DNA from: Bacteroidota bacterium | Lineage (GTDB): Bacteria > Bacteroidota > Bacteroidia > B-17B0 > Aurantibacillaceae | NCBI GenBank assembly: GCA_013297775.1 | Contig: JAAFIL010000005.1 | Span: 127,377-151,376, forward strand | DNA: 24,000 nt | Reading direction: 5' to 3' | Shown: positions 490-16,328 of the stretch, one piece after another | Numbering within the stretch: the first letter of the stretch is position 1 | Layout: every line of letters starts with the position of its first letter | Position numbers and translations under genes: made by a program | The notes under the pieces: generated by a model | The model's input: only the letters and a program-made list of their open reading frames with translations | Told to the model about the DNA's origin: nothing | Database searches by the model: none

Positions 490-518
490 AAGCCTTACAG
501 AAATGTGAGGCTTTTTTT
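490..518 (+). terminator. Rho-independent terminator after tRNA-Val
   Basis: Stem AAGCCT (490-495) / AGGCTT (508-513), followed by a T7 run. Confidence 0.75.
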
Positions 519-523
519 ATGGA

Positions 524-552
524 ATGTATCCTGTTTATATTTTCATTTTAAA
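524..552 (+). pseudogene. Remnant of a GIY-YIG gene 5' end (first ~9 codons only)
   Basis: ATGTATCCTGTTTATATTTTCATTTT (MYPVYIFIL) is homologous to the start of the intact GIY-YIG gene at 4728 ([34 protein letters not shown]). Similarity is lost after ~552. Confidence 0.45.
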
Positions 553-567
553 TAGTTTCCAGTTTAA

Positions 568-762
568 TCCAAATATCTGTTGCTAACTTTCCATGAGCCT
601 TTTTAATTGTCAAATTATGTAAATCTGGGTAAAATAATTTCAACCTTTTTTCAACCACAACAACACCCGTGGATAAATATGGAAAACGCATCAACGGCTG
701 AAATTATAGCTACTGTTGCAAAATGCCCTTCTGGTGCCTTGAGTATAAAGGTAAGTGAATGA
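568..762 (+). pseudogene. Decayed small (4Fe-4S)-binding-protein-like gene (divergent 4Fe-4S mono-cluster type)
   Basis: One frame reads SKYLLLTFHEPF*LSNYVNLGKIISTFFQPQQHPWINMENASTAEIIATVAKCPSGALSIKVSE*. The C-terminal PWI..ENAS......CPSGALS signature of this small family is retained. There is an in-frame TAA at 604-606, and the upstream Cys ligand positions are replaced (apparently by Leu). Confidence 0.4.
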
Positions 763-820
763 TAAAACTATAAATTAAGTAGATAAAAATAAATTAACTT
801 TTTTACAAGCTACGATTATT

Positions 821-1063
821 TAAGGTTCACTCAAAATGTATAAAAATTAACTGAATTGAGGTAGCAAAGTGAAGCTGTATTAAAATACCTCGAACTGAGC
901 TAACGATGCGTCAGTTAATTTTATCAAGCGAAATGAAAAAATAAAATTCACTTTTTTCGTGCACGAGTTTTATCAAAAAACACTAAAAACCTTGCACTTA
1001 AAAAAGAATTTAATCCTTAAAGCACTTGCTAAACGAACTATTTGCGCTTTTGAGTGAACCCTA
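821..1063. repeat. ~240-bp MITE-like segment bounded by 16-bp terminal inverted repeats, with nested internal inverted repeats
   Basis: TAAGGTTCACTCAAAA (821-836) matches the reverse complement of 1048-1063 (TAGGGTTCACTCAAAA) at 15/16. Inner inverted repeat: AAAATTAACTGA (843-854) / TCAGTTAATTTT (911-922). No ORF inside. Confidence 0.35.
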
Positions 1064-1064
1064 C

Positions 1065-3497
1065 TTAAAATTCAAATATAAATCCAATGGTAGGAACTAC
1101 AACGGGGTCATTACTATCAATAATCACTGGTATTCCGTTGCTACCATCCTGTTTTAAAGTCATTCCATCTGTAGTTTCAAAGCCCGAATTATCGGTTTTT
1201 CTTTTAAACGTATATCGTGGTAAGCCTGGTGTTGGCAATACAAAAGCGTTTTGAACATCAATGTATAAATCTAAAGTTGTTTTTTTGAAATTAATTTTTT
1301 TATCCATTCTAAAATCAAATTGATTAAATGGCAACAATCTTTTAGAATTTATATTACTAAAGTTTAAAGTACCAACACCTGTAATTTGATAATTAAGTTG
1401 TGACAATACAGGATCAAACGGCGTATAGGGTTGGCCACCAGCTATTCGGTATTTTAATCCCATTTCCCAGCCTTTCTTAAACTTTCGGCCAATAGTAGTT
1501 GCCAATAAATAGCCATAATCCCAAGATGATGGTAAAAGTTTTCCATCAAGTCCAGAAAATTCACTCTTATAAACGGTTACACTTACAGCATAGAATAGTT
1601 TTTTAATCAATTTTTGTTGGATAAAAAACTCAACACCATACGTTCTGCCTTTACCATTAGAAATAATTGGCTCATTACCAACCGCAGTAAATTCAGCACC
1701 TTGATTGGCAGTAGAAATTCCTGTAACTAAAGATACTGGGTAATTGTTGTAATCTTTAAAAAAACCTTCAACCGTAATTCTTAAATCTTCTTTCGGCAAA
1801 TATTGAAATCCTAAAACGTAATGGTCAGAATTAATGTATTTCATATTTTTATTCACGAGAGTGCCCGCTTCATTTCTATACCCTAAATTGGTATAAATTG
1901 GTATTTTGTAATAAGAACCAATAGAACCTGTTAAATCAATTTTTGGAAATAAATTATACGAGAACGAAAGCCTTGGAGAGATTGTATTTAATGGATTTAA
2001 ACCGTCATTTAGAAATGTGTTTGCATCCGATCTAACACCAGCAGAGATTAATAATTTCTCCCTAAAAAAACGTTTTGAAACTTGTGCAAACGCACCGAAT
2101 TTAAAAAATTCAATGGCACTATTAAATCGAACATCTATACTTGGCAAAAGTACATTTCCGACTGAGTCTTTTAAACCAGGGCTAACGTTATTAAATATAT
2201 TGGCATTATACTTCACATATTGCCCCATAACCCCATACCCAAATTTCCAACCATTAATAAATTGATTGACATCCACTCTTAACTTATTTTCTATTTCTTG
2301 AGATCTTAATTTTAAAGTTCTAAACTGTTCTTGTTGTATGTTATCTTGAAATCTATCCGCTCCATTATCAAACATATTTCTGCTTAAGGCAACATTTATA
2401 TACCCTTTATTTATTAAGCGTTTTAAACTTACTCCAAATGTATAGGTCCATTGATCAAGCAAAGGATTAGCCCTAGATATATATTCATTTTCTGGAGTAG
2501 CGTTTTTGGGTGTTACTAATCTAAATTTATCAATGGCTCCAATTCCAATAAAGTTAAGTGTTGTTTTATCATCTATTTTATGCGACACTTTATATTGAAA
2601 ATCCCAATAGTCTGGTCTTATGGGTAAATCTAAAGCTTGAAATAAAAACTGTAAATAGGAGCGACGAGCGGATACGATGTAATTTGTTTTTTTTCCTAAA
2701 GGACCTTCTAATGTCGTAGAAAACTCTGTACCACTTAAACGAATATTTCCACTAAATTTTTCTGGATTACCTGTTCTTTGTTTGATATTAAAGGTAGATG
2801 CCAAAGCGTTATCATACCTTGCATCAAAAGCAGAGGAACTTAATTGAACATCGTCAATAAACGAAACATTTAATATCCCCGTTGCACCGCCAGAGGCACC
2901 TTGTGTTTGGAAGTGATTCAATACAGGAATTTCAATGCCATCCAAATAATATACATTCTCATTTGGTGCACCACCTCTCACAATAATATCATTGCGGTTC
3001 GCGGAGGTGCCGCCACCTACACCAGGTAGTACTTGTATTACTTTTGACACATCAAAATTTCCTCCTGGGTTTGCTTTAATTTCTTCGTAGGTTAATTTTT
3101 GAGTGGACATTGGTGTAATCATATCGGCGGCGGCGGCCGACTTACCCTTATCAAAAGTAACAGTTACCTCGGTGAGTTCAGACGATGTTGCTTCCAATTC
3201 AAAGTTTACAGTTTGGGCATTTCCTGTTGTAACAGATATATTGTATTTTATCAGTGTAGTATAACCTAAATAGGATGCTTTTAAGTTATGGGTTCCAACG
3301 GCCAAATTGATTTTATAATTCCCTTCTACATCGGTAGTTGTGGCGTTCGTTGTTCCATCCAAAGAAATAACGGCCCCCACAATTGCTTCCTGCGTGTTTT
3401 TGTCTTTTACGCTACCGCGAATAATGCCATTGCTTTGAGAAAATGCTCTTATGCCAAGCGAGGTTAACATAACTAAAAAGTAAATTTTTGTTTTCAT
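1065..3497 (-). CDS. TonB-dependent outer-membrane receptor with N-terminal CarboxypepD_reg-like domain
   Basis: 810-aa ORF with signal peptide MKTKIYFLVMLTSLGIRAFSQ. It has the IRGSVKDKNTQEAIVGAVISL...TDVEGNYKI carboxypeptidase-regulatory-like fold motif, a plug region (NRNDIIVRGGAPNENVYYLDGIEIP), and a beta-barrel ending in an aromatic residue (...GFIFEF). Confidence 0.9.
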   Translation of the reverse strand: MKTKIYFLVMLTSLGIRAFSQSNGIIRGSVKDKNTQEAIVGAVISLDGTTNATTTDVEGNYKINLAVGTHNLKASYLGYTTLIKYNISVTTGNAQTVNFELEATSSELTEVTVTFDKGKSAAAADMITPMSTQKLTYEEIKANPGGNFDVSKVIQVLPGVGGGTSANRNDIIVRGGAPNENVYYLDGIEIPVLNHFQTQGASGGATGILNVSFIDDVQLSSSAFDARYDNALASTFNIKQRTGNPEKFSGNIRLSGTEFSTTLEGPLGKKTNYIVSARRSYLQFLFQALDLPIRPDYWDFQYKVSHKIDDKTTLNFIGIGAIDKFRLVTPKNATPENEYISRANPLLDQWTYTFGVSLKRLINKGYINVALSRNMFDNGADRFQDNIQQEQFRTLKLRSQEIENKLRVDVNQFINGWKFGYGVMGQYVKYNANIFNNVSPGLKDSVGNVLLPSIDVRFNSAIEFFKFGAFAQVSKRFFREKLLISAGVRSDANTFLNDGLNPLNTISPRLSFSYNLFPKIDLTGSIGSYYKIPIYTNLGYRNEAGTLVNKNMKYINSDHYVLGFQYLPKEDLRITVEGFFKDYNNYPVSLVTGISTANQGAEFTAVGNEPIISNGKGRTYGVEFFIQQKLIKKLFYAVSVTVYKSEFSGLDGKLLPSSWDYGYLLATTIGRKFKKGWEMGLKYRIAGGQPYTPFDPVLSQLNYQITGVGTLNFSNINSKRLLPFNQFDFRMDKKINFKKTTLDLYIDVQNAFVLPTPGLPRYTFKRKTDNSGFETTDGMTLKQDGSNGIPVIIDSNDPVVVPTIGFIFEF

Positions 3498-3523
3498 ATT
3501 ATATGTTATTGCTATAATTTTTA

Positions 3524-3531
3524 CAAATATA
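3524..3531 (-). promoter_or_regulatory. Candidate -7 box (TATATTTG on the minus strand) for the TonB-dependent receptor gene
   Basis: The reverse complement of caaatata is TATATTTG, matching TAnnTTTG, 27 bp upstream of the ATG at 3497. Confidence 0.4.
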
Positions 3532-3584
3532 ATACGTTAACATATAAAATGCAAAAAATGTTTTGTGTTTTCGTACATTATTTC

Positions 3585-3592
3585 TAATTTTG
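3585..3592 (+). promoter_or_regulatory. Candidate -7 box (TAATTTTG) for the 3620 gene
   Basis: Matches TAnnTTTG, 28 bp upstream of the ATG at 3620. Confidence 0.4.
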
Positions 3593-3619
3593 AAATGTTA
3601 TCATATTAAACCGTTCTAA

Positions 3620-4288
3620 ATGAAAAAAGAAATTATTTTTGAAATACTAGAACATCTATTCGCTTTCGACGCGTCTTATAAAGACAGTAAAGACTATACC
3701 TTAAATGATTTTGTAGGTTACCTCACAGCGGTAACAGGCACGAATACAGTTGAAATGAGAGATATTGCAGGGGATAAGGAATTACATTTAAAAGAGGTAA
3801 GACGTGAAAATAATAGTGATGTCTCTATTTTAATTACGATTATGTTTCGTTATGCTAAGGGATATATTAAGAAAGCTTTGCAGAACAGCCCGATTCAAAC
3901 GATGGATGAATTTGCATTTTTGATTACCTTAATGACTTTTGATAGCCTTACCAAGACTGAACTTATTAATAAACAAGTAATGGAAAAAACTTCAGGGATA
4001 GAAGTTATCAAACGACTCTTAAGTCAAAAACTGATTAAAGAATTTGCCGATGAAAACGATAAAAGAAGCGTTAGAGTAGCAATTACAAGTAAAGGCAAAA
4101 AGGAGATAACGAGTGTATTACCTGAAATGGCGAATGTTTCAAAAATTGTTGTTGGCAATCTATCCAAAGCAGAGATTAACACTTTATCGTACTTACTAAA
4201 AAAGCTAGATTTTTTTCATAATGATATATTCATAAATAAGAAAGCGTTGACGCTTAATGAAATTTTAAGTGAGTCCACAAAAAACTAA
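3620..4288 (+). CDS. MarR-like winged-helix transcriptional regulator (222 aa, extended N-terminal region)
   Basis: The C-terminal half (TKTELINKQVMEKTSGIEVIKRLLSQKLIKEFADENDKRSVRVAITSKGKK) has the MarR wHTH pattern. It is divergent from the TonB-dependent receptor gene. Confidence 0.65.
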   Translation: MKKEIIFEILEHLFAFDASYKDSKDYTLNDFVGYLTAVTGTNTVEMRDIAGDKELHLKEVRRENNSDVSILITIMFRYAKGYIKKALQNSPIQTMDEFAFLITLMTFDSLTKTELINKQVMEKTSGIEVIKRLLSQKLIKEFADENDKRSVRVAITSKGKKEITSVLPEMANVSKIVVGNLSKAEINTLSYLLKKLDFFHNDIFINKKALTLNEILSESTKN

Positions 4289-4684
4289 AGATAACTTTAT
4301 ATAGGGGCTCCTCAGCAACTATAAAAATCAGTATTATTAAACATTTTAGAGGCAAAAATGAAAAAGAATCTGCAAGGTAAAAATGCTCAAAATTCAACAA
4401 ATACAGAAAAAACTCTTGAAGAACATTTCATAATAACGCATTATCAAATTAAAAAGAATTATGTTAGATCTCGAATAAGCATAAATTGAACCAATTAAAA
4501 TAGTAAAAGTCATAGTCAAATTGGCTGTTTTGAAAGTAATTGAAAAAGAGCTGAGTTTACGAGGAGTCCCTAAATAAACAAGGATTTAGTTGAAGACATT
4601 TTCATTTACAAGCATACTCAAATGATAAAAGAACACAATTTCTTTAATTCTTATAGGATTTCGTTCGGATTTAGCCTATTAAAG

Positions 4685-4718
4685 CCCACCAAAGCCTTAC
4701 AGAAATGTAGGGCTTTTT
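4685..4718 (+). repeat. Second copy of the tRNA-Val 3' end plus terminator (copy B)
   Basis: CCCACCAAAGCCTTACAGAAATGT is identical over 24 nt to 483-506. Homology at roughly 80% continues to ~4756, into the GIY-YIG start. Confidence 0.85.
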
Positions 4719-4724
4719 ATTTGA

Positions 4725-5064
<340 letters not shown>

Positions 5065-5071
<7 letters not shown>

Positions 5072-5117
5072 AAGCCTTACAGAACTTGTCCCGATACTCC
5101 GAGAAATGTGAGGCTTT
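5065..5117 (+). repeat. Third copy of the tRNA-Val 3' end plus terminator (copy C), split by a 21-nt insertion
   Basis: CCCACCAAAGCCTTACAG + [AACTTGTCCCGATACTCCGAG, 5083-5103] + AAATGTGAGGCTTT. Both flanks are identical to 483-514. Confidence 0.8.
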
Positions 5118-5150
5118 CTCTTTTTATCAATTTGTTACTCACGAATAGTT

Positions 5151-6170
5151 TCAAGTATAACCCTCTGAATACTTAGAAAGTGTATGTTTCATTCTGGATT
5201 GAATTTTTCTTGATAATCGTTTTGGACTTAGAACTTTCACTTGCTCTCCAAAGCCTAATATTTCACGCTCTAATTCAAAATTCCAAATAACCTCAATTGA
5301 AAAGATCGTCCCATCAGGATCTTCTCTTAATATTTTTTGCGAAGCATGTAACGGTTTTGTAATAATGTAAGGAGCGTGTTCTTTAATGATTTTCATCACA
5401 ATTAATTGTGGTGTTTGATTGGGCATTTTCGAAACACCAATAACATCATTAAAATAAGTGCTTACATCAAATTCTGCTTTGCGATATTTCTCAGAACTTA
5501 ATTCTTTGAATTGTTCAATTCTGTCTAGAGCTAAAATCATGGTGGCGTTTCCCTTTCTTTTGGCACCTAACACAAACCATCTATTGCGATACTCTTTCAA
5601 TAGATACGCATAAAACACGATTACCTGCGGCAACCGCGCTTTGAAAGATTGATAAGTAACTTCAATTGTTTTTTTGTTGATAATCGCCTTATGCAAAGGA
5701 TCAATATGTTTTAATCCTTTTAATAGTTCATTCTTTTCAAAATCAATGTATGATTTGCCTTTATGTTGTTGCTTGTAAAGCTTATCCTCTAGCCGAGTTA
5801 CCATACCATTTAACTCCTGAAAATAGCCAAAACCATTAAATTGTTTCAACACATGCAACACCTCGTTTAACGTTCCCAAATCTTGTTGAGTAATGGGCGA
5901 ATTAGTTATGCTATAATTTTTTTCTTCATAGCTGTAATACTTCTTATCTGTAACAACAATAGGCGCATTGTAACCCAGTTTTTCGCTGCGCATATTTTGT
6001 AAATCAAGTTGTATGGCTCGCTTACTAATCCCTTTTGTAATCCCTTCATATTCATATAACGCATCAGAACAGGCTTCCATTAAGTCTTCCAACGTCCATT
6101 TACGAAAACGATTTTGCAAACAATTGTCTATCGTTTTATATCTTACTAAGGCTAATTTATTAATTGGCAT
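5151..6170 (-). CDS. HTH + WYL-domain transcriptional regulator (YafY-like, 339 aa)
   Basis: It has an N-terminal wHTH-like region and a central WYL signature (YAYLLKEYRNRWFVLG). The C-terminal extension is typical of WYL regulators (VKVLSPKRLSRKI). It is divergent from rsr. Confidence 0.8.
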   Translation of the reverse strand: MPINKLALVRYKTIDNCLQNRFRKWTLEDLMEACSDALYEYEGITKGISKRAIQLDLQNMRSEKLGYNAPIVVTDKKYYSYEEKNYSITNSPITQQDLGTLNEVLHVLKQFNGFGYFQELNGMVTRLEDKLYKQQHKGKSYIDFEKNELLKGLKHIDPLHKAIINKKTIEVTYQSFKARLPQVIVFYAYLLKEYRNRWFVLGAKRKGNATMILALDRIEQFKELSSEKYRKAEFDVSTYFNDVIGVSKMPNQTPQLIVMKIIKEHAPYIITKPLHASQKILREDPDGTIFSIEVIWNFELEREILGFGEQVKVLSPKRLSRKIQSRMKHTLSKYSEGYT

Positions 6171-6218
6171 CTATTTTATTCCTTATAATTTGAGAAGTAA
6201 ATATAATACTTTTCAAAA

Positions 6219-6241
6219 ACTACGCAATCTATTTGCGTAGT
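6219..6241. promoter_or_regulatory. Operator-like perfect palindrome ACTACGCAA-N5-TTGCGTAGT (site 1)
   Basis: 9-bp perfect inverted repeat with a 5-bp spacer, 49 bp upstream of the WYL regulator start codon. Confidence 0.5.
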
Positions 6242-6331
6242 ATCAATTTAAAGATAGCATCAGTTTAAATTATTCTTACTGAATATCAATAAGTTAATAC
6301 TATTTTAGGTTATAAATTGAGAAAATAATTT

Positions 6332-6354
6332 ACTACGCAATTCGGATGCGTACT
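6332..6354. promoter_or_regulatory. Operator-like palindrome ACTACGCAA-N5-ATGCGTACT (site 2)
   Basis: The left half-site is identical to site 1. The right half has 2 mismatches. The two sites are 113 bp apart centre to centre, and site 2 ends ~160 bp upstream of rsr. Confidence 0.45.
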
Positions 6355-6479
6355 AGCACCTCACCTTTGTACTGTTAATATGAAACGCCAATAGAAAACG
6401 ATTTTAAATTGGCGTTAAATAAAAATAGAAAACATGAACTTTTTTTGTTTCAATTAAAAAAGTAACGAAAATCAAAAAA

Positions 6480-6491
6480 GTAACATGTTAC
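6480..6491. promoter_or_regulatory. Perfect 12-bp palindrome GTAACATGTTAC just upstream of rsr
   Basis: It ends 25 bp before the rsr ATG. Its left half belongs to the direct repeat AAAAAAGTAAC (6456-6466 and 6474-6484). Confidence 0.3.
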
Positions 6492-6516
6492 ATTAAAAAT
6501 AATAAAATAGAGCAAC

Positions 6517-8034
6517 ATGAAATTCAATGTCTTTAAAAGAAAAGCAAATGTAGTAAACAACTACGAAGGCGCAAAAGCTTACCAGTTAACTCCTGAAATT
6601 GAATTATACGCTGCTGTAGTAACAGCTGGATTAAGCGATACTTTTTATGAGAAAAGTGATATACGTTTGGCTAGAATACAAACGTTGATGTTGAAGAATA
6701 ATCCTGAGTATGTTGCAAAATTAGCAGTGTATGCGCGTAATGAAATGTACATGAGAAGTATCCCTTTGGTATTAGCTGTCGAGTTGGCCAAATTAAACTC
6801 AGGTAATGTAATTGTAAGTAAAACAGTAAATGGCGTTGTGAAACGTGCAGATGAAATCACGGAACTATTAGCTTACTACCAATTAGCCAATAATAGAAAT
6901 GGCGTTAAAAAATTGAACAAGCTTTCTAAACAAATACAAAAAGGTTTGTCTGAAGCTTTCAATAAATTTGATGAGTATCAATTTGCTAAGTATAACCGTG
7001 CAACTGAAGTAAAATTGCGTGATGCTTTATTTATAGTTCACCCAAAAGCTAAACAAGAATCTCAACAAGAGATATTCAATAAAATAGCTACTAATGGATT
7101 AGCAGTGCCATATACTTGGGAAACTGAATTATCGGCTTTAGGGCAAGTGAAATACGAAAATGAAAAAGTAAAAGCCCATGCGGTTAAAGTAAAATGGAAA
7201 GAGTTGATAGATAGCGGTAAAATAGGCTATATGGCATTGATGAGAAACTTGCGTAACATTTTAGATGCAAATGTATCAGCAGCACATGTTAAAAAAGTGT
7301 GCAACTATTTATCCAATGAAATTGCTGTTGCTAATTCAAAACAATTACCTTTTCGATTCTTGGCCGCTTACCGAGAGATAAAAATTTTAAAATCTGAATA
7401 TGTTACCATGATTTTAAATGCTTTAGAAGATGCAGTAGTTGCAAGTGCAAAAAACCTGAAAGGGTTTGATGAGTCAACAAGAGTATTGATTGCTTGTGAT
7501 GTATCTGGGTCAATGCAAAAAGCAGTATCTGCAAAAAGTAAAGTGATGTTGTTTGACATAGGTTTGATGTTGGGTATGTTGATGCAATCGAAATGTAAAA
7601 GAGTAGTAACCGGAATGTTTGGTGATAACTGGAAAGTGATAAACATGCCAAACCGTGGAGTATTATCAAATGTTGATGAATACTACAAACGAGAAGGTGA
7701 AGTTGGTTACGCAACAAATGGTTATAAAGTGATTGATGATTTAATCAATCGTGGAGTAATGATGGATAAAATAATGTTGTTCACTGACTGCCAATTGTGG
7801 GATGGCAAATTTGGAGGTTCAAGCCTTGAGAAATCATGGATATCCTACAAGCAAATAGTTCCAAATGCAAAATTGTATTTGTTCGATTTGGCAGGTTATG
7901 GCAACACTCCATTAAGTATTCAAAAAGATGATGTCTGCTTAATCGCAGGATGGTCAGATAAAGTGTTTGACGTGTTACATGCTATCGAAAACGGTGAGAG
8001 TGCTATTGAAAAAATCAAACAAGTAATGTTGTAA
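6517..8034 (+). CDS. rsr: Rsr / Ro60-like TROVE-domain protein with C-terminal vWA (MIDAS) domain, 505 aa
   Basis: The N-terminus NYEGAKAYQLTPEIELYAAVVTAGLSDTFYEKSD...YARNEMYMRS is TROVE-like. The C-terminal vWA has the MIDAS motif DVSGSM. Size and domain order match Ro 60-kDa orthologues. Confidence 0.85.
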   Translation: MKFNVFKRKANVVNNYEGAKAYQLTPEIELYAAVVTAGLSDTFYEKSDIRLARIQTLMLKNNPEYVAKLAVYARNEMYMRSIPLVLAVELAKLNSGNVIVSKTVNGVVKRADEITELLAYYQLANNRNGVKKLNKLSKQIQKGLSEAFNKFDEYQFAKYNRATEVKLRDALFIVHPKAKQESQQEIFNKIATNGLAVPYTWETELSALGQVKYENEKVKAHAVKVKWKELIDSGKIGYMALMRNLRNILDANVSAAHVKKVCNYLSNEIAVANSKQLPFRFLAAYREIKILKSEYVTMILNALEDAVVASAKNLKGFDESTRVLIACDVSGSMQKAVSAKSKVMLFDIGLMLGMLMQSKCKRVVTGMFGDNWKVINMPNRGVLSNVDEYYKREGEVGYATNGYKVIDDLINRGVMMDKIMLFTDCQLWDGKFGGSSLEKSWISYKQIVPNAKLYLFDLAGYGNTPLSIQKDDVCLIAGWSDKVFDVLHAIENGESAIEKIKQVML

Positions 8035-8042
8035 TAGAAGCC

Positions 8043-8070
8043 CCCTCTCTGTTAATTTGAACAGAGAGGG
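8043..8070 (+). terminator. Strong hairpin after rsr with a weak U-tract (leaky terminator or processing site)
   Basis: CCCTCTCTGTT (8043-8053) / AACAGAGAGGG (8060-8070) form an 11-bp perfect stem with loop AATTTG. It is followed by TTATAAAAA rather than a T-run. Confidence 0.5.
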
Positions 8071-8108
8071 TTATAAAAATTAGTTCTTTAAAATATGGAT
8101 ATTGTCAA

Positions 8109-8203
8109 AATGCCGTAGAATCGGAATACATCGCTCGCAACAGGGGAAGGGTCTCAATGCAAATTGGGAAGAGGTGCAAATCCTCATGCGTATCCCCGTT
8201 CTG
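8109..8203 (+). ncRNA. Y-RNA-like unit 1 (divergent)
   Basis: The 5' box is AATGCCGTAGAATCGGAATACATCG. Box residues 8116-8129 can pair with 8190-8203 (TAGAA-T-CGG / CCGTTCTG and ATAC / GTAT). Inside are a 7-bp hairpin capped by GCAA (TCTCAAT-GCAA-ATTGGGA, 8152-8169) and a T-arm-like hairpin (GAGG-TGCAAAT-CCTC, 8171-8185). Alternative registers exist, so the fold is uncertain. Confidence 0.45.
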
Positions 8204-8283
8204 AATTTGCTTTTGCTTTTGGCAAAAAACTGAAATGCCATGCATTCCAGATAACCAATAGTTAATATTATAAAAACATGAAA

Positions 8284-8363
8284 GATGCCGTAAATTAGGG
8301 ATACATCGTGGCCAACGCAGGTTCGAATCCTGCTCCTAGAGAAATTTAGGATTTTCCCTTATT
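8284..8363 (+). ncRNA. Y-RNA-like unit 2 (short; T-arm plus one hairpin, no D-arm)
   Basis: The 5' box is GATGCCGTAAATTAGGGATACATCG. The closing helix AATTAGGGA (8293-8301) / TCCCTTATT (8355-8363) pairs at 8 of 9 positions. It has a canonical T-arm GCAGG-TTCGAAT-CCTGC (8317-8333), then the hairpin TCCTA-GAGAAATT-TAGGA (8334-8351). Confidence 0.5.
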
Positions 8364-8391
8364 GCTTTTAGCTCTTTCATAAAATATAAAC

Positions 8392-8503
8392 AGTGTCGTA
8401 AGTAAGAGATACTTCGTTTTAATTTATGTGTCGTTGGTTCGAGTCCAACTTTCATGCAAATGAAATAGCTCAGTGGGTAGAGCAATAAAAAAGACTCTTA
8501 CGG
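8392..8503 (+). ncRNA. Y-RNA-like unit 3: YrlA-style permuted tRNA-like domain on a long bulged helix
   Basis: The 5' box is AGTGTCGTAAGTAAGAGATACTTCG. GTAAGAG (8402-8408) pairs with CTCTTAC (8495-8501), and TTTAT (8423-8427) pairs with ATAAA (8485-8489). The variable region is GTGTC. The T-arm is GTTGG-TTCGAGT-CCAAC (8433-8449). The acceptor-like hairpin is TTTCAT-GCAA-ATGAAA (8450-8465), followed by TA and the D-arm GCTC-AGTGGGTA-GAGC (8468-8483), then A. Confidence 0.65.
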
Positions 8504-8530
8504 ATTTTTACCTGTTTTGAAACAGTGAAT

Positions 8531-8651
8531 GGTGTCGTAGAATAGAGATACTTCGACTTCGGATCGGGCGGACGTGGGTTCGAATCCCATCAAGGTAACA
8601 ACCACTTTAATTACCTTGTAGCTCAGTGGAAGAGCACCTTGTGCTTTATTC
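8531..8651 (+). ncRNA. Y-RNA-like unit 4: circularly permuted, complete tRNA-Arg(UCG)-like cloverleaf inside a closing helix
   Basis: The closing helix is GAATAGAG (8540-8547) / CTTTATTC (8644-8651). The anticodon arm is TTCGA-CTTCGGA-TCGGG (8552-8568), the variable region is CGGAC, and the T-arm is GTGGG-TTCGAAT-CCCAT (8574-8590). The acceptor 3' strand CAAGGTA + A (8591-8598) is joined by a 14-nt loop to the acceptor 5' strand TACCTTG (8612-8618). Then come TA, the D-arm GCTC-AGTGGAA-GAGC (8621-8635) and A26 (8636). Confidence 0.65.
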
Positions 8652-8672
8652 GTTTGTTGCCCATTCATATTT

Positions 8673-8746
8673 CGGTTTATAGCTCAGTTTGGTAGAGCAC
8701 CGTCCTTTTAAGACGGGAGTCCTTGGTTCAAATCCAAGTAGGCCGA
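8673..8746 (+). tRNA. tRNA-Lys (anticodon TTT), AT-rich atypical acceptor, no encoded CCA
   Basis: 74-nt cloverleaf. The acceptor is CGGTTTA/TAGGCCG (C1-G72, two G.U pairs). The D-arm is GCTC-AGTTTGGTA-GAGC, the anticodon arm is CCGTC-CTTTTAA-GACGG, the variable region is GAGTC, and the T-arm is CTTGG-TTCAAAT-CCAAG. The discriminator is A. Confidence 0.75.
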
Positions 8747-8750
8747 CAAA

Positions 8751-8823
8751 GGAAATGTAGTAAAGATGGTCAATGCAGCGGACTGAAAATCCGATGATGT
8801 AGGTTCGAATCCTACCATTTCCA
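8751..8823 (+). tRNA. tRNA-Phe (anticodon GAA)-like, non-canonical
   Basis: 73 nt. The acceptor is GGAAATG/CATTTCC. The D-arm GTAA-AGATGGTCA-ATGC has one mismatch. The anticodon arm GCGGA-CTGAAAA-TCCGA has a G/A mismatch at 27-43. The variable loop is 4 nt, and the T-arm is GTAGG-TTCGAAT-CCTAC. It starts 4 nt after tRNA-Lys. Confidence 0.6.
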
Positions 8824-8832
8824 CAAATACTT

Positions 8833-8905
8833 CGGGAAGTATTTCAATTGTTAGAATGCAGGCTTTGGGAGCTTGTGGTTGCAGGTTCGAGTCCTGCCTT
8901 CCCGA
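8833..8905 (+). tRNA. tRNA-Pro (anticodon TGG)-like, non-canonical D-loop
   Basis: 73 nt. The acceptor is CGGGAAG/CTTCCCG. The D-arm is TTTC-AATTGTTA-GAAT (3 bp, no GG in the loop). The anticodon arm is CAGGC-TTTGGGA-GCTTG, the variable region is TGGTT, and the T-arm is GCAGG-TTCGAGT-CCTGC. The discriminator is A. Confidence 0.55.
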
Positions 8906-8910
8906 CAAAA

Positions 8911-8963
8911 AGTGCCGTACAACATAGTTACTTCGTACTTTTAATATGTTAAATACTATGTTG
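8911..8963 (+). ncRNA. Y-RNA-like unit 5 (minimal: 5' box plus closing helix, no tRNA-like insert)
   Basis: The 5' box is AGTGCCGTACAACATAGTTACTTCG. CAACATAGT (8920-8928) pairs perfectly with ACTATGTTG (8955-8963) around a 26-nt AT-rich insert. Confidence 0.45.
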
Positions 8964-9012
8964 GTTATTTGCCTTTTTAACCGAAATTTTAAGAAATCGG
9001 ACACTTTATAAT

Positions 9013-9071
9013 AAAACATCTAATCCATTTTTAAGTTTTGATTCTAAGTGTTTTACAGAGTTAGATGTTTT
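9013..9071 (+). terminator. Terminator-like inverted repeat at the end of the RNA array
   Basis: AAAACATCTAA (9013-9023) / TTAGATGTTTT (9061-9071) is a perfect 11-bp repeat ending in TTTTATT, but the 37-nt loop is atypical. Confidence 0.3.
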
Positions 9072-9122
9072 ATTCTAAAGAATTTCTTTTTTGAAACTAC
9101 GATTTAACTATCTATTTACGAC

Positions 9123-9288
9123 TTATACCAATATCGGTTCTAAAAGATACAAGTTGAACCAGAATTATTTTTCTTTTAGGCGACGAAAAAATTACAGACG
9201 TAGCAAGGCCTACGGGTATAATTTTTGAGGAAGTATAAGAGAAAAAGAAACTGGGTCAACGTATCTTTTAGAAATGATGTTGGTATAA
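9123..9288. repeat. 166-bp long imperfect palindrome (extended hairpin / MITE-like) abutting the hrpB stop codon
   Basis: The left arm is TTATACCAATATCGGTTCTAAAAGATACAAGTTGAACCAG... The reverse complement of the right arm is TTATACCAACATCATTTCTAAAAGATACGTTGACCCAG... Inner pairs are AAAAATTA/TAATTTTT and CGTAG/CTACG around the central loop CAAGGC. Confidence 0.6.
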
Positions 9289-9290
9289 AC

Positions 9291-11774
9291 TTATTTTACA
9301 CTTTTACCTTTGGCTAAAGCCTTTGCCTGCCAAGGGTCTTCGGGCCAAGCATGTTTTGGATAACGCCTTTGCAATTCCTTTTTCACTTCGTGGTATAAAT
9401 TATTCCAAAAACTTTTTAAGTCGGTAGTTACTTGTACGGGTTTATATCCAGGCGATAATAAATGCAGCACCACAGGCATTTGATTGTTATTAACACGAGG
9501 TGTATCGGCCAAACCAAACACCTCTTGTAAACGAACCGCCATAAGGGGTGTAGCTCCATTCATAAAATAGGTGATGGGTAATTTAGAACCACTTGGCACA
9601 TTTAATTTTGAAGGTGCCAAGGCATTCAACTGTTGTTGTTGCTCCCAACTTAAACTATTTAAAAAACATACCTCTAAATTTAATTTCTTCAAATCATCGG
9701 GTTTTCTGCACGTTTCTAAATAAGGCCCTAGCCATTGTTGCGCTTGCACCAACAGGTAATCAGTGCTACTTTCTGGCCAATCTGCGTTGGTATTCCACAC
9801 ACGTAAACTCGCCACCCGTGCCTGCAGTTGCGCCATCGGTTCATCCCAATTTAATAAACTTAAACCTTCGTTAGCAATGGCTTTACAAATAGCTTCACCG
9901 ATCAAGTGCTTTGGAAATGTAGTTAATGGATTACGTTTCAATACCAAAGCACCTAACTTCCATTCAGTAAAGGCTTGCAAACCCCCTTTACGGGTGTCCC
10001 AATACAACGACTCTTCTTCACGCACCAAACTTTTCAAATCGCTGGGATCTAGTGCGGCTGCTAAGAAAATTTTTCCATCTCCCTCGCGCATATCCACATG
10101 CGCTACTGCTAACCAAGGCTCATGCGCTAAATTATCTTGATGTGCGAACAAGGCGTACTTACCATTAGCCAATTGAAACCGAGCGTTGTTACCAGGGCGT
10201 GCCGAGGCAATGCGCTCGGGGTAAGCAAACGCTAATGCCAAGCCCGCACTATGAGCGTCTATGGCGGTATTACTTTCTTTCAATCCCAATAAATTCAAAT
10301 AGTAATTTGCGTTAGCAGCAATGCGTTTCCACGCTCCTGTTAAACGATTTTGTTCACGAAGACGGCGCAATAACTCGATGCGTAAATTAATATCTATACC
10401 ACTATCGCGCGGCATAGGATCCCGCTCATCTAATATGGCCGCTACATCGCAAGCCAATTGTTTAAGCGTTATATCGTGGGCTTGTAACAGCATGTGTGCT
10501 ATGCGCGGGTGGCAGCCCAAACGGTGGATGTGTTTGCCATGTTCAGTTAATTTATTTGCTTTAATAGCTTCTAACTGTTCGAGTAGCTCGTTAGCCTGCG
10601 CAAGAGCGGCTTTGGGGGGTGGCGTTACCCAATTCAAATCGTAAACGTTGCTAACACCCCATTTGGTGGCTTCTAAAACAAGGCCACTTAAATCGGCTTC
10701 TATTATTTCGGGTACACGGTGTTCGGCCAGACGATTGTGTGTTGCAGTACTCCACAAACGGTAACACACGCCACTGCTTAAACGACCAGCACGTCCCATG
10801 CGTTGGTCGGCAGCATCTTTACTAATGCGCAAGGTTTCTAACTTCGATAAACCCGAACGTGTATCGAACCGTTGGCGTTTGGCAAAACCGCTATCAATCA
10901 CAATACGCACTCCTTCGATGGTTAAACTTGTTTCGGCAATAGAGGTTGCTAACACTACTTTGCGCAAGCCTTGTTTATTAGGCATTAGTGCCGCTTGTTG
11001 TTCACTTGAACTTAATAAGCCATACAGCGGATGTATGCGAATAGTTGATAATTCATTTTTTAATAATGCCTCGCAACGGCGAATGTCAGCTTCACCGGGT
11101 AAAAATGCCAATAAATCCCCTTCATGTTTAGCAAGTGCTTCTACAATGCACTGCGCCATTAATTCGGGCAATAACCGCTCGTCGGCATCGTTTCCATAAA
11201 ATAACTCAACAGGGTATTGCCGTCCTGTGCTTTCGATGAAGGGGGCGTTTAACAACGCTTGTAGCTCGGGCATATTGAGGGTGGCCGACATAATGAGTAG
11301 GCGTAAATCGGGACGTAAAACCTGTTGCGCCTCTCTGCACAAAGCCAAAGCCATATCGGCTTGTAAATTGCGTTCGTGAAACTCATCAAAAATAACCAAA
11401 GCCGTATCTTCTAAAGCATTATCGTGTTGCAATAAACGCGTTAAGATGCCTTCGGTTACTACCTCTAAGCGTGTGGCTTTACTAATGCGGGTTTCGAGGC
11501 GTATGCGGTACCCCACCGTTTCGCCAACGGGTTCGTTAAGTAATTGCGCCATGCGTTGCGCAATACTTTTAGCGGCTAATCGGCGAGGCTCTAATACGAT
11601 TATTTTTTTTCCTTGTAACCACGTCTCATCTAATAATGCCAATGGTAAAATAGTGCTTTTGCCCGCACCCGGCGGTGCTCCTAACAGAAGCGTATTTTGC
11701 GCATGTAACTGTTGCTTTAAATCAGCAATGCAATCGTTAACAGGAAAATTATATAAAAACGGATCGAATGTCAT
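9291..11774 (-). CDS. hrpB: ATP-dependent DEAH-box RNA helicase HrpB
   Basis: 827 aa with Walker A GAPPGAGKST, DEFHER (DEAH box), SAT, and the helicase C / HA2 / HrpB_C layout. It is colinear with my recollection of enterobacterial HrpB. Confidence 0.9.
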   Translation of the reverse strand: MTFDPFLYNFPVNDCIADLKQQLHAQNTLLLGAPPGAGKSTILPLALLDETWLQGKKIIVLEPRRLAAKSIAQRMAQLLNEPVGETVGYRIRLETRISKATRLEVVTEGILTRLLQHDNALEDTALVIFDEFHERNLQADMALALCREAQQVLRPDLRLLIMSATLNMPELQALLNAPFIESTGRQYPVELFYGNDADERLLPELMAQCIVEALAKHEGDLLAFLPGEADIRRCEALLKNELSTIRIHPLYGLLSSSEQQAALMPNKQGLRKVVLATSIAETSLTIEGVRIVIDSGFAKRQRFDTRSGLSKLETLRISKDAADQRMGRAGRLSSGVCYRLWSTATHNRLAEHRVPEIIEADLSGLVLEATKWGVSNVYDLNWVTPPPKAALAQANELLEQLEAIKANKLTEHGKHIHRLGCHPRIAHMLLQAHDITLKQLACDVAAILDERDPMPRDSGIDINLRIELLRRLREQNRLTGAWKRIAANANYYLNLLGLKESNTAIDAHSAGLALAFAYPERIASARPGNNARFQLANGKYALFAHQDNLAHEPWLAVAHVDMREGDGKIFLAAALDPSDLKSLVREEESLYWDTRKGGLQAFTEWKLGALVLKRNPLTTFPKHLIGEAICKAIANEGLSLLNWDEPMAQLQARVASLRVWNTNADWPESSTDYLLVQAQQWLGPYLETCRKPDDLKKLNLEVCFLNSLSWEQQQQLNALAPSKLNVPSGSKLPITYFMNGATPLMAVRLQEVFGLADTPRVNNNQMPVVLHLLSPGYKPVQVTTDLKSFWNNLYHEVKKELQRRYPKHAWPEDPWQAKALAKGKSVK

Positions 11775-16301: not shown

Positions 16302-16328
16302 GAAAAGACATCAAACGTATTTGACCTG

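Follow-up and report, generated by a model that had tools for sequence, protein, structure and literature searches.

The rsr locus of the window (the whole stretch of DNA that was analysed, 24,000 nucleotides) very probably represents, in Bacteroidota form, the RNA-repair operon that bacteria build around Rsr (Ro60) and Y RNAs. It consists of a WYL-type regulator, Rsr, five different Y RNAs and three tRNAs; its membership in a system already known is well supported, and it is not a new kind. The analysis shows what the parts are, that the RNA structures and the operator are conserved, and that the gene order is shared with relatives. The features are as follows.

5151-6170, minus strand: WYL-family transcription factor, 339 aa, wHTH-WYL-WCX, YafY/COG2378 type
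6221-6239, no strand assigned: operator 1, TACGCAATCTATTTGCGTA (TACGCAA-N5-TTGCGTA), 51 bp before the start codon of the WYL gene
6334-6352, no strand assigned: operator 2, TACGCAATTCGGATGCGTA (TACGCAA-N5-(A)TGCGTA), 165 bp before the start codon of rsr
6517-8034, plus strand: rsr, Ro60 orthologue, 505 aa, TROVE HEAT-repeat ring and vWA domain with a DVSGSM MIDAS
8043-8070, plus strand: 11-bp GC-rich hairpin just 3' of the rsr stop codon, without a U-tract on the plus strand
8104-8223, plus strand: Y1, predicted Rsr-binding stem with GCCGUA, three-way junction with an invariant T-arm-like hairpin GAGGUGCAAAUCCUC
8281-8377, plus strand: Y2, predicted Rsr-binding stem, T arm and acceptor-like stem-loop, without a D arm
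8389-8516, plus strand: Y3, full YrlA-type Y RNA
8528-8665, plus strand: Y4, full YrlA-type Y RNA, 8-bp acceptor-like stem and 12-nt loop CAACCACUUUAA
8673-8747, plus strand: array-type tRNA-Lys(UUU) with a C1-G72 pair (ARAGORN and Rfam)
8751-8824, plus strand: array-type tRNA-Phe(GAA) with an atypical D arm (ARAGORN and Rfam)
8833-8906, plus strand: array-type tRNA-Pro(UGG) with U in place of G19 and a mismatched 10-25 pair (ARAGORN and Rfam)
8908-8977, plus strand: Y5, short hairpin Y RNA of YrlB/Yrn2 type, predicted Rsr-binding stem and AU-rich loop
9004-9092, plus strand: long AU-rich hairpin followed by UUUCUUUUUU, from a fold of 8975-9295, candidate terminator

The TROVE and vWA/MIDAS architecture of the rsr product, already recognized in an earlier note made from the sequence alone, is borne out by a Pfam TROVE match far above its cutoff (E 2e-28, 100 bits, cutoff 23) and by the DVSGSM motif, which is kept without change in 32 homologues, with D328, S330 and S332 invariant. 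The Pfam comparison proposed in that note thus succeeds for TROVE and WYL, whereas vWA_Ro60 scores 20 bits, under its cutoff of 27.7. The homologue search returned more than 5000 proteins. The NCBIfam Rsr equivalog is a bare match (20 bits, cutoff 900), which indicates that this Ro60 branch is distant from the characterised proteins. The PHROG family phrog_850 ("RNA-binding protein") matches residues 5-501 at 1.3e-56, and the structures 9KOP and 9L5Y of the phage phiLo Ro60, in which a CGAA motif mediates binding of Y-like RNA (PMC12135203), match residues 14-498 at E 7e-29.

The divergent regulator exceeds the Pfam cutoffs for WYL (38 bits, cutoff 21.8) and WCX (44.6 bits, cutoff 23.9) and is matched by the PADLOC WYL model (2.3e-22). 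Its AlphaFold model (pLDDT 67) has an H-H-H-beta-beta N-terminal fold, and Foldseek returns full-length matches to DriD (8tp8, 2.5e-13), PafBC, CapW and BrxR. The 346-bp intergenic region (6171-6516) does contain the two palindrome copies reported previously, and they are the only two matches of the pattern in the window. Across related loci, every one of 49 WYL-rsr intergenic regions carries the conserved palindromic operator TRCGCA-N7-TGCGYA at a constant offset, with 84 sites observed against 0.48 in shuffles; a second site lies approximately 112 bp from the first in 34 of the 49. The half-sites vary symmetrically (TACGCA/TGCGTA versus TGCGCA/TGCGCA). Of 81 loci, 52 have a divergent WYL homologue upstream of rsr, so that the presence of WYL in place of RtcR, which had been regarded as unusual, is instead the rule of the clade. 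The literature names RNA repair pathways among those that WYL transcription factors control (PMC9503650). Among the solved relatives, DriD and PafBC are activators and CapW and BrxR are repressors; both activation and repression by the regulator are therefore possible.

Downstream of rsr and on the same strand, five structured units and three tRNAs were found in 8104-8977, as had been proposed. Each of the five units opens with TGYCGTA-N8-(A/T)TAC(A/T)TCG (8111, 8286, 8394, 8533 and 8913), and in 8100-8900 the T-loops (GGTTCRANTCC) and D-arms (TAGCTCAG..AGAGC) noticed earlier number six and three, respectively. Y3 is laid out as a predicted Rsr-binding stem, a V region, a T arm, a 6-bp acceptor-like stem with a GCAA tetraloop, and a D arm, the stem and loop details having been taken directly from the sequence. 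The covariance model R1, which was trained on 39 related units with Y2 and Y5 outside the training set, matches all five units end to end, with scores of 25.3 bits for Y1 (E 6e-4), 66.8 for Y2 (E 5.6e-13), 123 for Y3, 105.5 for Y4 and 48.9 for Y5 (E 4.4e-9). In the R1 helices, 96.5% of cells are paired, versus 74% in shuffles and 38-52% when the helices are slid; the covariation score is 0.657 versus 0.224, and compensatory changes occur in 21 of 28 pairs. An alignment of nine Y1 sequences, from a unit with orthologues at 16 loci, has 94.8% of cells paired and compensatory changes in 16 of 32 pairs, a level reached by 0 of 500 shuffles. Y2 has orthologues at the related loci L002, L004, L006 and L007, and orthologous Y units keep the same order.

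These data bear on whether the array has no Y-RNA function and is merely a tRNA operon that contains degenerate tRNA pseudogenes or dimeric-tRNA artefacts. The T and D arms of adjacent tRNAs alone can mimic YrlA matches, a caveat raised by Chen 2014 (PMC4201824), and weak partial R1 matches do span the tRNA junctions 8799-8857 and 8705-8785. However, all five units have a non-tRNA terminal helix with invariant UG-CGUA and UAC-UC, helices 1 and 2 of R1 covary in 12 of 13 pairs, the arm order is permuted (T, AS, D), Y1 and Y5 are 96-100% conserved although they have no tRNA-like core, and ARAGORN finds no tRNA in 8104-8665. The pseudogene reading is contradicted by the covariation data and is hardly credible.

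The Y-RNA assignment agrees with the published family, for which a GNCGAAN0-1G motif, a T/AS/D architecture and multiple Y RNAs per species have been described (Chen 2014, PMC4201824); the GYCGUA motif here is a one-base variant of the GNCGAA of YrlA. In the Rfam scan suggested previously, the three tRNAs are recovered at 60-68 bits in agreement with ARAGORN, whereas YrlA (RF02553) matches Y3 (42.6 bits, E 9e-8) and Y4 (31.4 bits) only below the gathering score of 69. Rfam YrlA at its gathering threshold gives no match in 10 related loci either. An R1 search of 80 loci yields 366 matches, all on the rsr strand and all downstream of rsr. Arrays contain 2-10 units with a median of 4 (71 loci), and the five units here are typical of the Bacteroidota clade, not "expanded". 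Deinococcus provides precedents both for several Y RNAs per locus and for their co-transcription with tRNAs, as in the Yrn2-tRNA(Asp)-Yrn1 polycistron of D. radiodurans (Chen 2014, PMC4201824).

The array tRNAs are a lineage apart from the single housekeeping-type copies with which they were compared in other related loci. The tRNA-Lys is 77-89% identical to the same-position tRNA-Lys of L001, L002 and L008 and 65% identical to the sole housekeeping-type tRNA-Lys compared (L012); the tRNA-Phe shares 74-76% identity with its array counterparts in L001 and L010 and 50% with the sole housekeeping-type tRNA-Phe compared (L050); and the tRNA-Pro is 91% identical to the tRNA-Pro immediately after rsr in L012. 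The minus-strand 103-aa ORF (8708-9019) overlies these genes, in line with the earlier reading of it as a tRNA shadow. Such a separate lineage, 96-97% conserved between relatives, would suit an anti-anticodon-nuclease module, in which WYL senses tRNA fragments made by a toxin or by a phage-triggered nuclease and induces the operon, with the tRNA-like domains of the Y RNAs as decoys or competitive inhibitors and the array tRNAs as spares or sponges. YrlA has been proposed as a possible competitive inhibitor of anticodon nuclease (Hughes 2020, PMC7790460), and operonic tRNAs co-regulated with rtcB as sponges (Santamaria-Gomez 2021, PMC8421152). tRNAs recur inside the operon in several lineages (L008, L010, L012, L044 and L102-L105), six tRNAs separate the WYL gene from rsr in L009 and L010 and are themselves flanked by operator sites, and the module is bordered by large tRNA arrays in L001, L002, L009, L010, L074 and 6 of 20 viral contigs. 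However, tRNAs lie in or beside the array in just approximately 13% of loci (9 of 71). The anticodon loop CUUUUAA is the same in the array tRNA-Lys and in the sole housekeeping-type copy compared (L012), which gives no sign of nuclease evasion. Additionally, no nuclease or toxin gene is linked to the locus, the solved WYL relatives bind ssDNA, tRNA fragments are unreported as a ligand, and processing punctuation explains tRNAs in the precursor equally well, as in D. radiodurans (PMC4201824). An anti-nuclease role is accordingly unlikely, and the RNA-repair operon is the preferred reading.

The surroundings of the locus bear on another possibility, namely that it is domesticated or resident phage-derived cargo whose Rsr, Y RNAs and tRNAs serve a mobile element (for example, by modulating host PNPase) and not host RNA quality control. 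The phrog_850 match is better than those to Pfam TROVE or NCBIfam Rsr, a Thermus phage Ro60 is the only PDB sequence match, and Rsr relatives (30-61% identity) are encoded on 20 IMG/VR contigs, of which 18 also have R1-type Y units and six have 10-27 tRNAs nearby. The rearranged tRNA-Val locus described earlier, next to the rsr site, is present as partial 3'-end copies at 4685-4723 and 5014-5124, and such serial partial duplications are a mark of an integration hotspot. However, these repeats enclose 490-4684 and 4724-5064 and not the rsr module; the window, in which the neighbours encode a TonB-dependent receptor, MarR, HrpB and YjbR, contains no phage, integrase or conjugation genes; and 80 Bacteroidota species have the module at chromosomal loci, where a WYL regulator and an operator are dedicated to it. 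A phage-cargo origin is thus quite improbable. The low GC content once attributed to the site is not distinctive, since the whole window is at approximately 0.29-0.38 and only HrpB (9291-11774) is higher (0.42-0.48).

A comparison with the closest relatives, L102, L104 and L105 (Rsr identity 90-93%), supports the assignment of the locus to the RNA-repair operon. Their order is rsr, Y1-Y4, tRNA-Arg, Lys, Phe and Pro, Y5, rtcB and rlaP; tRNA-Tyr accompanies tRNA-Arg in two of the three, and Y5 directly precedes rtcB in L102 and L104. Identity to L102 and L104 is 97% for Y1, 93-100% for Y2, 96-100% for Y5, 97% for tRNA-Lys, and 96-97% for tRNA-Phe and tRNA-Pro, and the most divergent unit is Y4 (76-78%). 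The rsr coding sequence (90-92%) is less conserved than Y1, Y2, Y3 and Y5 (93-100%) or the tRNAs (96-97%). Homology of the window to the relatives stops at approximately 8980, just past Y5, and BLAST of 8987-9290 against 80 related loci gives no matches. Of 80 loci, 40 have RtcB downstream of the array and 8 have RlaP; tRNAs lie between rsr and rtcB in 5 of 38 loci. Contrary to the earlier proposal, the module is therefore not self-contained; because the relatives carry rtcB and rlaP after Y5, where the synteny stops, the copy here is secondarily truncated and has lost the RNA ligase genes that the closest relatives kept.

The hairpin after the rsr stop codon indeed lacks a U-tract, being followed by TTATAAAAATT in place of a T-run. 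It is 93% conserved in L102 and L104 and may serve for RNA processing, stabilise the mRNA 3' end or act as a leaky terminator, whereas the 9004-9092 hairpin may terminate the truncated operon. No promoter is assignable at the locus, so internal promoters for the RNA array are possible.

Taken together, we infer how the RNAs are co-transcribed and processed, how Rsr binds them, and which ligand and effector partners are involved, as follows. A DriD/PafBC-like wHTH-WYL-WCX dimer would bind the two TRCGCA-N7-TGCGYA copies and control its own gene and rsr. By analogy with the ssDNA-binding WYL relatives of solved structure, nucleic-acid damage or translational stress most likely supplies the trigger in the form of a single-stranded nucleic acid. 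RNA synthesis initiated at the rsr promoter would pass the U-tract-less hairpin and yield a single non-coding precursor, Y1-Y2-Y3-Y4-tRNA(Lys)-tRNA(Phe)-tRNA(Pro)-Y5, which RNase P, RNase Z and other tRNA-processing enzymes may cut, with the tRNAs and tRNA-like domains as punctuation. Each Y RNA keeps a common, putatively Rsr-binding module, the terminal bulged helix with GYCGUA. The second modules differ (two full tRNA mimics, one T-arm-only, one three-way junction and one plain hairpin), which suggests that Rsr is loaded into several different RNPs; these may gate Rsr or tether it to partners such as PNPase. In the relatives the transcript would run on into rtcB and rlaP, lost here by a rearrangement right after Y5, and this copy, which retains only the Rsr/Y-RNA/tRNA half, may be partly disabled because both genes are gone. 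The earlier note was thus correct in its part identities but not in calling the locus expanded, unusual and self-contained: the array size, the upstream WYL gene and the operator are the norm in the Bacteroidota Rsr clade.

The rsr locus is laid out as follows; the ORFs come from the ORF map, and both ARAGORN and Rfam call the Lys, Phe and Pro tRNAs, which the earlier note had recognized as three cloverleaves downstream of rsr.

5151-6170, minus strand: WYL regulator ORF, 339 aa, 346 bp from the rsr ORF
6221-6239, WYL-rsr intergenic region: palindrome TACGCAATCTATTTGCGTA
6334-6352, WYL-rsr intergenic region: palindrome TACGCAATTCGGATGCGTA
6517-8034, plus strand: rsr ORF, 505 aa
8104-8223, plus strand: Y1, the first of five Y-RNA-like units
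8281-8377, plus strand: Y2
8389-8516, plus strand: Y3
8528-8665, plus strand: Y4
8673-8747, plus strand: tRNA-Lys(UUU)
8751-8824, plus strand: tRNA-Phe(GAA)
8833-8906, plus strand: tRNA-Pro(UGG)
8908-8977, plus strand: Y5

The reading of 6517-8034 as a TROVE plus vWA protein of the Ro60 type holds. Pfam detects a TROVE (HEAT-repeat ring) domain (PF05731, E 2e-28, 100 bits versus a cutoff of 23), and the vWA_Ro60 model is matched under its cutoff (20 bits versus 27.7). A C-terminal vWA domain with a MIDAS (DxSxS) is present, as indicated by the DVSGSM motif (D328, S330, S332), which is invariant among 32 homologues, and by a match to the Ro60 structure of Thermus phage phiLo (9KOP) that spans residues 14-498. 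The phiLo protein is the solved protein closest in sequence to the window Rsr (E 7e-29, nearly full length), which additionally matches phrog_850 at 1.3e-56 over residues 5-501. The phage protein family and the phage structure match this Rsr better than bacterial models do; the NCBIfam Rsr equivalog is nearly blind to it, and PADLOC has no model for Rsr. Binding of Y RNA and misfolded RNA by the window protein is putative.

Five stretches of the array begin with TGYCGTA-N8-(A/T)TAC(A/T)TCG (at 8111, 8286, 8394, 8533 and 8913), and six canonical T-loops and three TAGCTCAG..AGAGC D-arms are present, which bears out the five structured units first noticed by eye. The published signature of YrlA (Chen 2014, PMC4201824) consists of a 5' GNCGAAN0-1G motif, a YUAY sequence opening the V region, and a T arm, acceptor-like (AS) stem-loop and D arm in permuted order, located at most 4 kb from rsr on the same strand. 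Y1-Y5 all lie on the plus strand, 70-950 nt downstream of the rsr stop, and carry GYCGUA(R), one base off GNCGAA (A to U at position 5), plus (U/A)UAC. The permuted tRNA-like domain (T arm, AS stem-loop, UA linker, D arm and the invariant tRNA nucleotides) is found in Y3 and Y4, and the D arm is absent from Y2. Y1 and Y5 are without a tRNA-like domain and are thus assigned to other classes of Y RNA (YrlB/Yrn2-like). The Rfam YrlA model (RF02553) matches Y3 at 8402-8504 (42.6 bits, E 9e-8) and Y4 at 8567-8638 (31.4 bits), in E-value mode only and short of the gathering score of 69. At the gathering threshold, tRNAs alone are reported in the window and in 10 related loci, with no YrlA match; because YrlA stays under threshold, routine annotation misses these Y RNAs.

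The structure of the units was examined in an alignment of 39 full-length units from 80 loci of species-representative genomes with 64-81% Rsr identity (Flavobacterium, Chryseobacterium, Pedobacter, Chitinophagales, Cytophagia and many MAGs). UG.CGUA is invariant across the alignment, and RNAalifold yields a terminal stem, an inner stem, a T arm, an AS stem and a D arm, with compensatory changes in 21 of 28 pairs. In this structure 96.5% of cells are paired, versus 74% in shuffles and 38-52% with the partners slid, and the covariation score (0.657 vs 0.224) is reached by none of 500 shuffles. The stem that joins the 5' and 3' ends (helices 1 and 2) shows compensatory changes in 12 of 13 pairs, with 95-97% of cells paired. 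The Y of GYCGUA pairs with the R of a 3' UURCC (C-G in 20 units, U-A in 14, U-G in 5), so the motif sits within a bulged helix, as it does in other Y RNAs. The covariation contradicts the notion that the units are merely decayed tRNAs, an explanation we find scarcely credible.

R1, the covariance model built from these 39 units, matches all five window units along its full length, as listed below.

Matches of R1 to the window units (score; E value; relation to the training set; elements missing)
Y3: 123 bits; 3e-25; in the set; nothing missing
Y4: 105.5 bits; 2.2e-21; in the set; nothing missing
Y2: 66.8 bits; 5.6e-13; outside the set; D arm missing
Y5: 48.9 bits; 4.4e-9; outside the set; entire tRNA-like core missing
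Y1: 25.3 bits; 6e-4; outside the set; tRNA-like core replaced by a different domain

Y1 is a separate class. Its orthologues occur in 16 loci, and an alignment of nine sequences supports a three-way junction with the invariant hairpin GAGGUGCAAAUCCUC, in which 94.8% of cells are paired and 16 of 32 pairs show compensatory changes, a result equalled by 0 of 500 shuffles. As read from the sequence, the AS stem of Y3 has 6 bp and a GCAA tetraloop cap, and that of Y4 has 8 bp and a 12-nt loop; the YrlA of M. smegmatis is an RNase P substrate owing to an AS stem of at least 7 bp (PMC4201824).

In the 80 loci, R1 gives 366 matches at E <= 1e-3, all on the rsr strand. The array had appeared expanded, but its five units are close to the norm: among the 71 loci with enough flank, the 5' motif occurs in 2-10 copies downstream of rsr, with a median of 4, and the largest arrays are those of Chryseobacterium. 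Units of the Y1 to Y5 types recur in the same order in L001, L002, L004, L007 and other related loci, and the unit types are ordered paralogues, not recent tandem copies. In comparison with two of the closest relatives (L102 and L104), the RNAs are better conserved than the proteins. The 57-nt spacer 8224-8280, which holds a small hairpin, is specific to the window.

Identity of window features to L102 / L104
Y1: 97.5 / 96.7%
Y2: 93 / 100%
Y3: 94 / 96%
Y4: 78 / 76%
Y5: 100 / 96%
Array tRNAs: 96-97% (both)
rsr coding sequence: 92 / 90%
WYL coding sequence: 92 / 78%

The Chryseobacterium loci (L049, L053, L060-L077) have no adjoining WYL homologue and the largest arrays, up to 10 units, which are separated from rsr by 1-2 kb of other genes (DUF6584, unknowns). 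A glyoxalase-fold gene adjoins rsr divergently in these loci, and metallophosphoesterase and RNase T-like exonuclease genes are among the upstream neighbours on the same strand. A Flavo-1 RNA (RF01705, 1100-1258; 46.4 bits against a gathering score of 42) is located some 5 kb upstream of the Pedobacter frigidisoli rsr (L026) and is probably unrelated. Another locus, L048 (CAZMHW010000619.1), encodes an Rsr with 91% identity, has a WYL gene with 88% identity and is binned as 'uncultured Akkermansia sp.', most likely in error, given that the remaining relatives are all Bacteroidota.

Pfam matches the WYL and WCX domains of the 339-aa regulator and finds no HTH in its N-terminus, even at E 10. 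The HTH of the proposed wHTH-WYL-WCX architecture is assigned from a medium-confidence AlphaFold model (pLDDT 67, only moderately reliable), which has a winged-helix-like N-terminus (H-H-H-beta-beta) and aligns end to end with DriD, PafBC, CapW and BrxR (Foldseek E 2.5e-13 to 1e-6). No PDB entry was matched by the protein's sequence, and its identity to these four regulators, with which it shares the fold, is only 12-15%. They are activated or released by single-stranded DNA and control DNA-damage or anti-phage genes; the window regulator likewise has a palindromic candidate operator in a divergent promoter region and a stress or conflict operon as its predicted target, which differs in being an Rsr/Y-RNA(-RtcB) operon.

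The two palindrome copies already noticed in the 346-bp WYL-rsr gap are the sole two matches to TRCGCA-N7-TGCGYA in the 24-kb window. In 52 of 81 loci a WYL homologue is encoded upstream of rsr in the divergent orientation, and in the 49 loci where it is within 1.5 kb of rsr, every intergenic region contains the pattern (at most one mismatch), with 84 sites in total versus 0.48 in shuffles; two copies about 112 bp apart are present in 34 of the 49. The half-sites vary symmetrically (TACGCA..TGCGTA versus TGCGCA..TGCGCA). A WYL factor in place of RtcR, which had been thought unusual, is therefore common in the clade, and no RtcR-like ORF (CARF-AAA+-HTH, sigma-54) adjoins the window rsr, whose divergent regulator is the WYL/WCX protein. 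The predicted control of the rsr operon by this protein through the putative operator is well supported by the comparative evidence (homologue, operator and fold). For the regulator's ligand and the sign of regulation, we infer rather than observe; according to the Aravind group, RNA repair pathways are regulated by WYL and CARF factors, which may sense RNAs that end in a cyclic phosphate (PMC9503650, PMC4012209). A scan for sigma-70-type promoters, with a model ill-suited to Bacteroidota, gave 9 hits versus 12.8 in shuffles, and no promoter was assigned.

Judged by their sequences, the array tRNAs form a lineage apart from the housekeeping-type copies compared, which are single tRNAs from other related loci and not from this genome. 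The tRNA-Lys shares 77-89% identity with its positional counterparts in L001, L002 and L008 and 65% with the housekeeping-type copy in L012; for the tRNA-Phe, identity is 74-76% with array copies and 50% with the L050 housekeeping-type copy; and the tRNA-Pro is 91% identical to a tRNA-Pro directly after rsr in L012. The proposal that the module supplies decoy or spare tRNAs against anticodon nucleases has published forerunners, but a nuclease-evading anticodon loop is not seen in tRNA-Lys, whose loop is the same as that of the one housekeeping-type copy compared, and we consider this explanation unlikely. Of 71 loci, 9 have tRNAs inside or adjoining the array, and of 38, 5 have them between rsr and rtcB; in L009 and L010 six tRNAs lie between the WYL gene and rsr, flanked on both sides by operator sites. 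In L001, L002, L009, L010 and L074 the module lies within runs of 10-17 tRNAs; the three tRNAs of the window fall short of an L-type array (about 10 to more than 40 supernumerary same-strand tRNA genes). Most rsr-linked array tRNAs (L001, L009, L010, L074 and window 8747-8910) have no encoded CCA. Their trailer is instead discriminator-CAAA(A), as in 11 of 16 in L074 and 3 of 3 in the window, and it may be a processing signal.

Rsr relatives are also encoded on 20 IMG/VR contigs, 18 of which carry R1-type Y units and 6 of which have 10-27 tRNAs nearby, interleaved with Y units. In two viral contigs (L082 6119-9234, L086 13350-16742), Y units are interleaved in arrays of 11-27 tRNAs, and several Y units end no more than 3 nt from the 5' end of the tRNA that follows. 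In the known phage Ro60 systems (mycobacteriophage Rsr/YrlA; phiLo Ro60 with Yrl1 and Yrl2, 9KOP/9L5Y), Y-like RNAs also lie beside the gene, and the viral relatives of the window Rsr mix R1-type Y units with large tRNA arrays. Unlike phiLo, in which two Yrl RNAs with a CGAA motif lie upstream, the window locus is chromosomal and has its own regulator. No phage genes are found in the window, and an origin of the module as phage-derived cargo is, in our estimation, quite improbable.

Neither RtcB nor RlaP is encoded in the 24-kb window, so the absence of an RtcB partner noted before is real, but the module is not self-contained, as had been suggested. In 40 of 80 loci the array is followed on its own strand by RtcB (Pfam E 9e-84); RlaP is found after it in 8. 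Metagenomic relatives with 93% and 90% identical Rsr have the order WYL, divergent rsr, Y1-Y4, tRNA-Arg, Lys, Phe, Pro, Y5, RtcB, with RtcB directly after Y5 in L102, L104 and L105. L104 and L105 contain an additional tRNA-Tyr after tRNA-Arg, and their first RtcB is followed by two RlaP genes and a second RtcB; in L102, a DUF5677 protein separates the two RtcB genes. The homology between the window and these relatives is 96-98% over Lys-Phe-Pro-Y5 and ends at 8978-8980, and window 8987-9290 is unmatched in the 80 genome loci and in L102-L105, the close relatives. Because the synteny and homology stop after Y5 and RtcB and RlaP are absent, the window copy is a truncated derivative of a WYL-rsr-Y-tRNA-rtcB-rlaP operon, and it has lost tRNA-Arg as well. 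Between the array end and the stop codon of HrpB lies a near-perfect hairpin of about 165 nt (9123-9290); the predicted fold of 8975-9295 reaches a z-score of -8.8, and its stability is equalled by 0 of 100 shuffles. The hairpin matches neither the 80 related loci nor, above noise, any Rfam family; it could be a trace of the rearrangement in which rtcB and rlaP were lost, or else a small mobile repeat.

The features that surround the locus are as follows.

412-521: tRNA-Val(UAC), intact, with encoded CCA and terminator hairpin
4685-4723: tRNA-Val partial copy, 3' end and hairpin only, 90% identical
5014-5124 (region 4985-5130): tRNA-Val degenerate 3' half with an insertion
9291-11774, minus strand: HrpB DEAH-box helicase (TIGR01970, 967 bits)
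14246-16018, plus strand: 590-aa ORF (PADLOC Type II methyltransferase model, E 6.8e-133)
16328-16402, opposite strand, just downstream of the 590-aa ORF: tRNA-Asn

The two partial copies confirm a rearranged tRNA-Val locus and show the pattern that successive integrations at the 3' end of a tRNA commonly leave behind. The segments they bracket contain a TonB-dependent receptor and a MarR-like gene, and a lone GIY-YIG ORF (4728-4976). The rsr module is not an island bounded by these repeats, which bracket 490-4684 and 4724-5064 instead; the only tRNA-Val repeat to its right is a weak 22-nt match. The low-GC stretch described earlier is not borne out either, as the composition profile is about 33% GC throughout, which rules out a low-GC island, and HrpB alone is richer (0.42-0.48). 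HrpB may have been acquired horizontally; it is beside rsr in 0 of 80 related loci and was rejected as a functional partner. The 590-aa ORF has weaker matches to Type IIG restriction-methyltransferase models.

The locus is very probably a WYL-controlled, stress-inducible operon in which rsr is followed by a polycistronic Y-RNA/tRNA precursor that provides five Y RNAs for several Rsr RNPs. The WYL factor would switch the operon under stress, and the rsr transcript would continue into the precursor; the hairpin after the rsr stop (8043-8070) indeed has no U-tract, with no T-run behind it. tRNA-processing enzymes would free the five Y RNAs, which share a common Rsr-binding module and differ in a second module and may thereby form several Rsr RNPs. 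With RtcB and RlaP, intact relatives would have a complete RNA-repair set.

This operon resembles several known systems. In Salmonella Typhimurium (rsr-yrlBA-rtcBA under RtcR/sigma-54; Chen 2014, Hughes 2020), rsr is likewise followed by Y RNAs on the same strand. One window class has the permuted T arm, AS stem-loop and D arm of YrlA with UA and YUAY linkers, and the 5' motif is of the GNCGAA type but reads GYCGUA. Half of the clade and also the closest relatives have RtcB downstream, as in Salmonella, although the window itself does not, and no RtcA was seen in the loci examined. The window differs in its WYL factor and palindromic operator, in five Y RNAs of five classes rather than two, in tRNA genes inside the array, and in units that stay under the Rfam gathering threshold. 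In Deinococcus radiodurans, five small RNAs lie by rsr, Yrn2-tRNA(Asp)-Yrn1 is co-transcribed, and no RtcB adjoins (PMC4201824). That locus (Yrn1, Yrn2, RNAs a, b, d and tRNA-Asp; Chen 2000/2014) shares with the window several small RNAs beside rsr, a tRNA among Y RNAs in one precursor (predicted in the window), one long-hairpin Y RNA beside T-arm-bearing ones, the lack of an adjoining RtcB and stress inducibility (predicted in the window). The Deinococcus RNAs lie upstream of rsr, whereas those of the window lie downstream; they belong to a lineage of their own (Yrn) that has both strands of the metazoan-type Ro helix, and a WYL regulator is not described there. Cyanobacterial L-type tRNA arrays are co-regulated with rtcB by the repressor TrcR (PMC8421152, PMC10272220), and the divergent supernumerary tRNAs of the window would similarly be under the stress control of RNA-repair genes, with five window relatives inside arrays of 10-17 tRNAs. 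Unlike these arrays, the window has three tRNAs only and a WYL rather than an RHH regulator, and its tRNAs are physically linked to rsr and Y RNAs, whereas Anabaena rtcB is apart from the trn operon and shares regulation alone; no Rsr or Y RNA is reported for the cyanobacterial arrays.

A more far-reaching idea, speculative and doubtful, is that Bacteroidota and phage Rsr, at least five fixed Y-RNA classes, divergent tRNAs and RtcB/RlaP act as one WYL-switched 'tRNA-pool rescue' unit. The WYL factor would sense single-stranded nucleic-acid fragments, the tRNA-mimic Y RNAs would titrate or divert nucleases that target tRNAs as well as factors that bind them, the array tRNAs would replenish the pool, and RtcB would mend cut RNAs. 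As in M. smegmatis, Y4-type units, with an AS stem of 7 bp or more, might be opened by RNase P to give split tRNA-like molecules with CCA tails.

Every element of the window locus has precedent, and the locus is therefore filed within a known kind of system. In the literature covered, which is partial, we found no description of the fixed five-class Y-RNA set, the GYCGUA variant, the universal WYL operator or the recurrent operon tRNAs, and for the same reason newness is not claimed for the WYL-Rsr link. The lesson of the window is a corrective one, in that a seemingly 'self-contained, expanded' module is a typical but truncated copy of a known operon. Since standard annotation misses the Y RNAs, the R1 model and the operator motif are of practical use. 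The role of bacterial Y RNAs, and above all of their tRNA-like domain, is a question that this clade can inform: it offers five Y-RNA classes that are conserved, differ in structure and keep a fixed order, a WYL regulator and operator that are directly testable, and tRNAs that recur inside the operon, in a locus that occurs in culturable Flavobacterium, Chryseobacterium and Pedobacter isolates.
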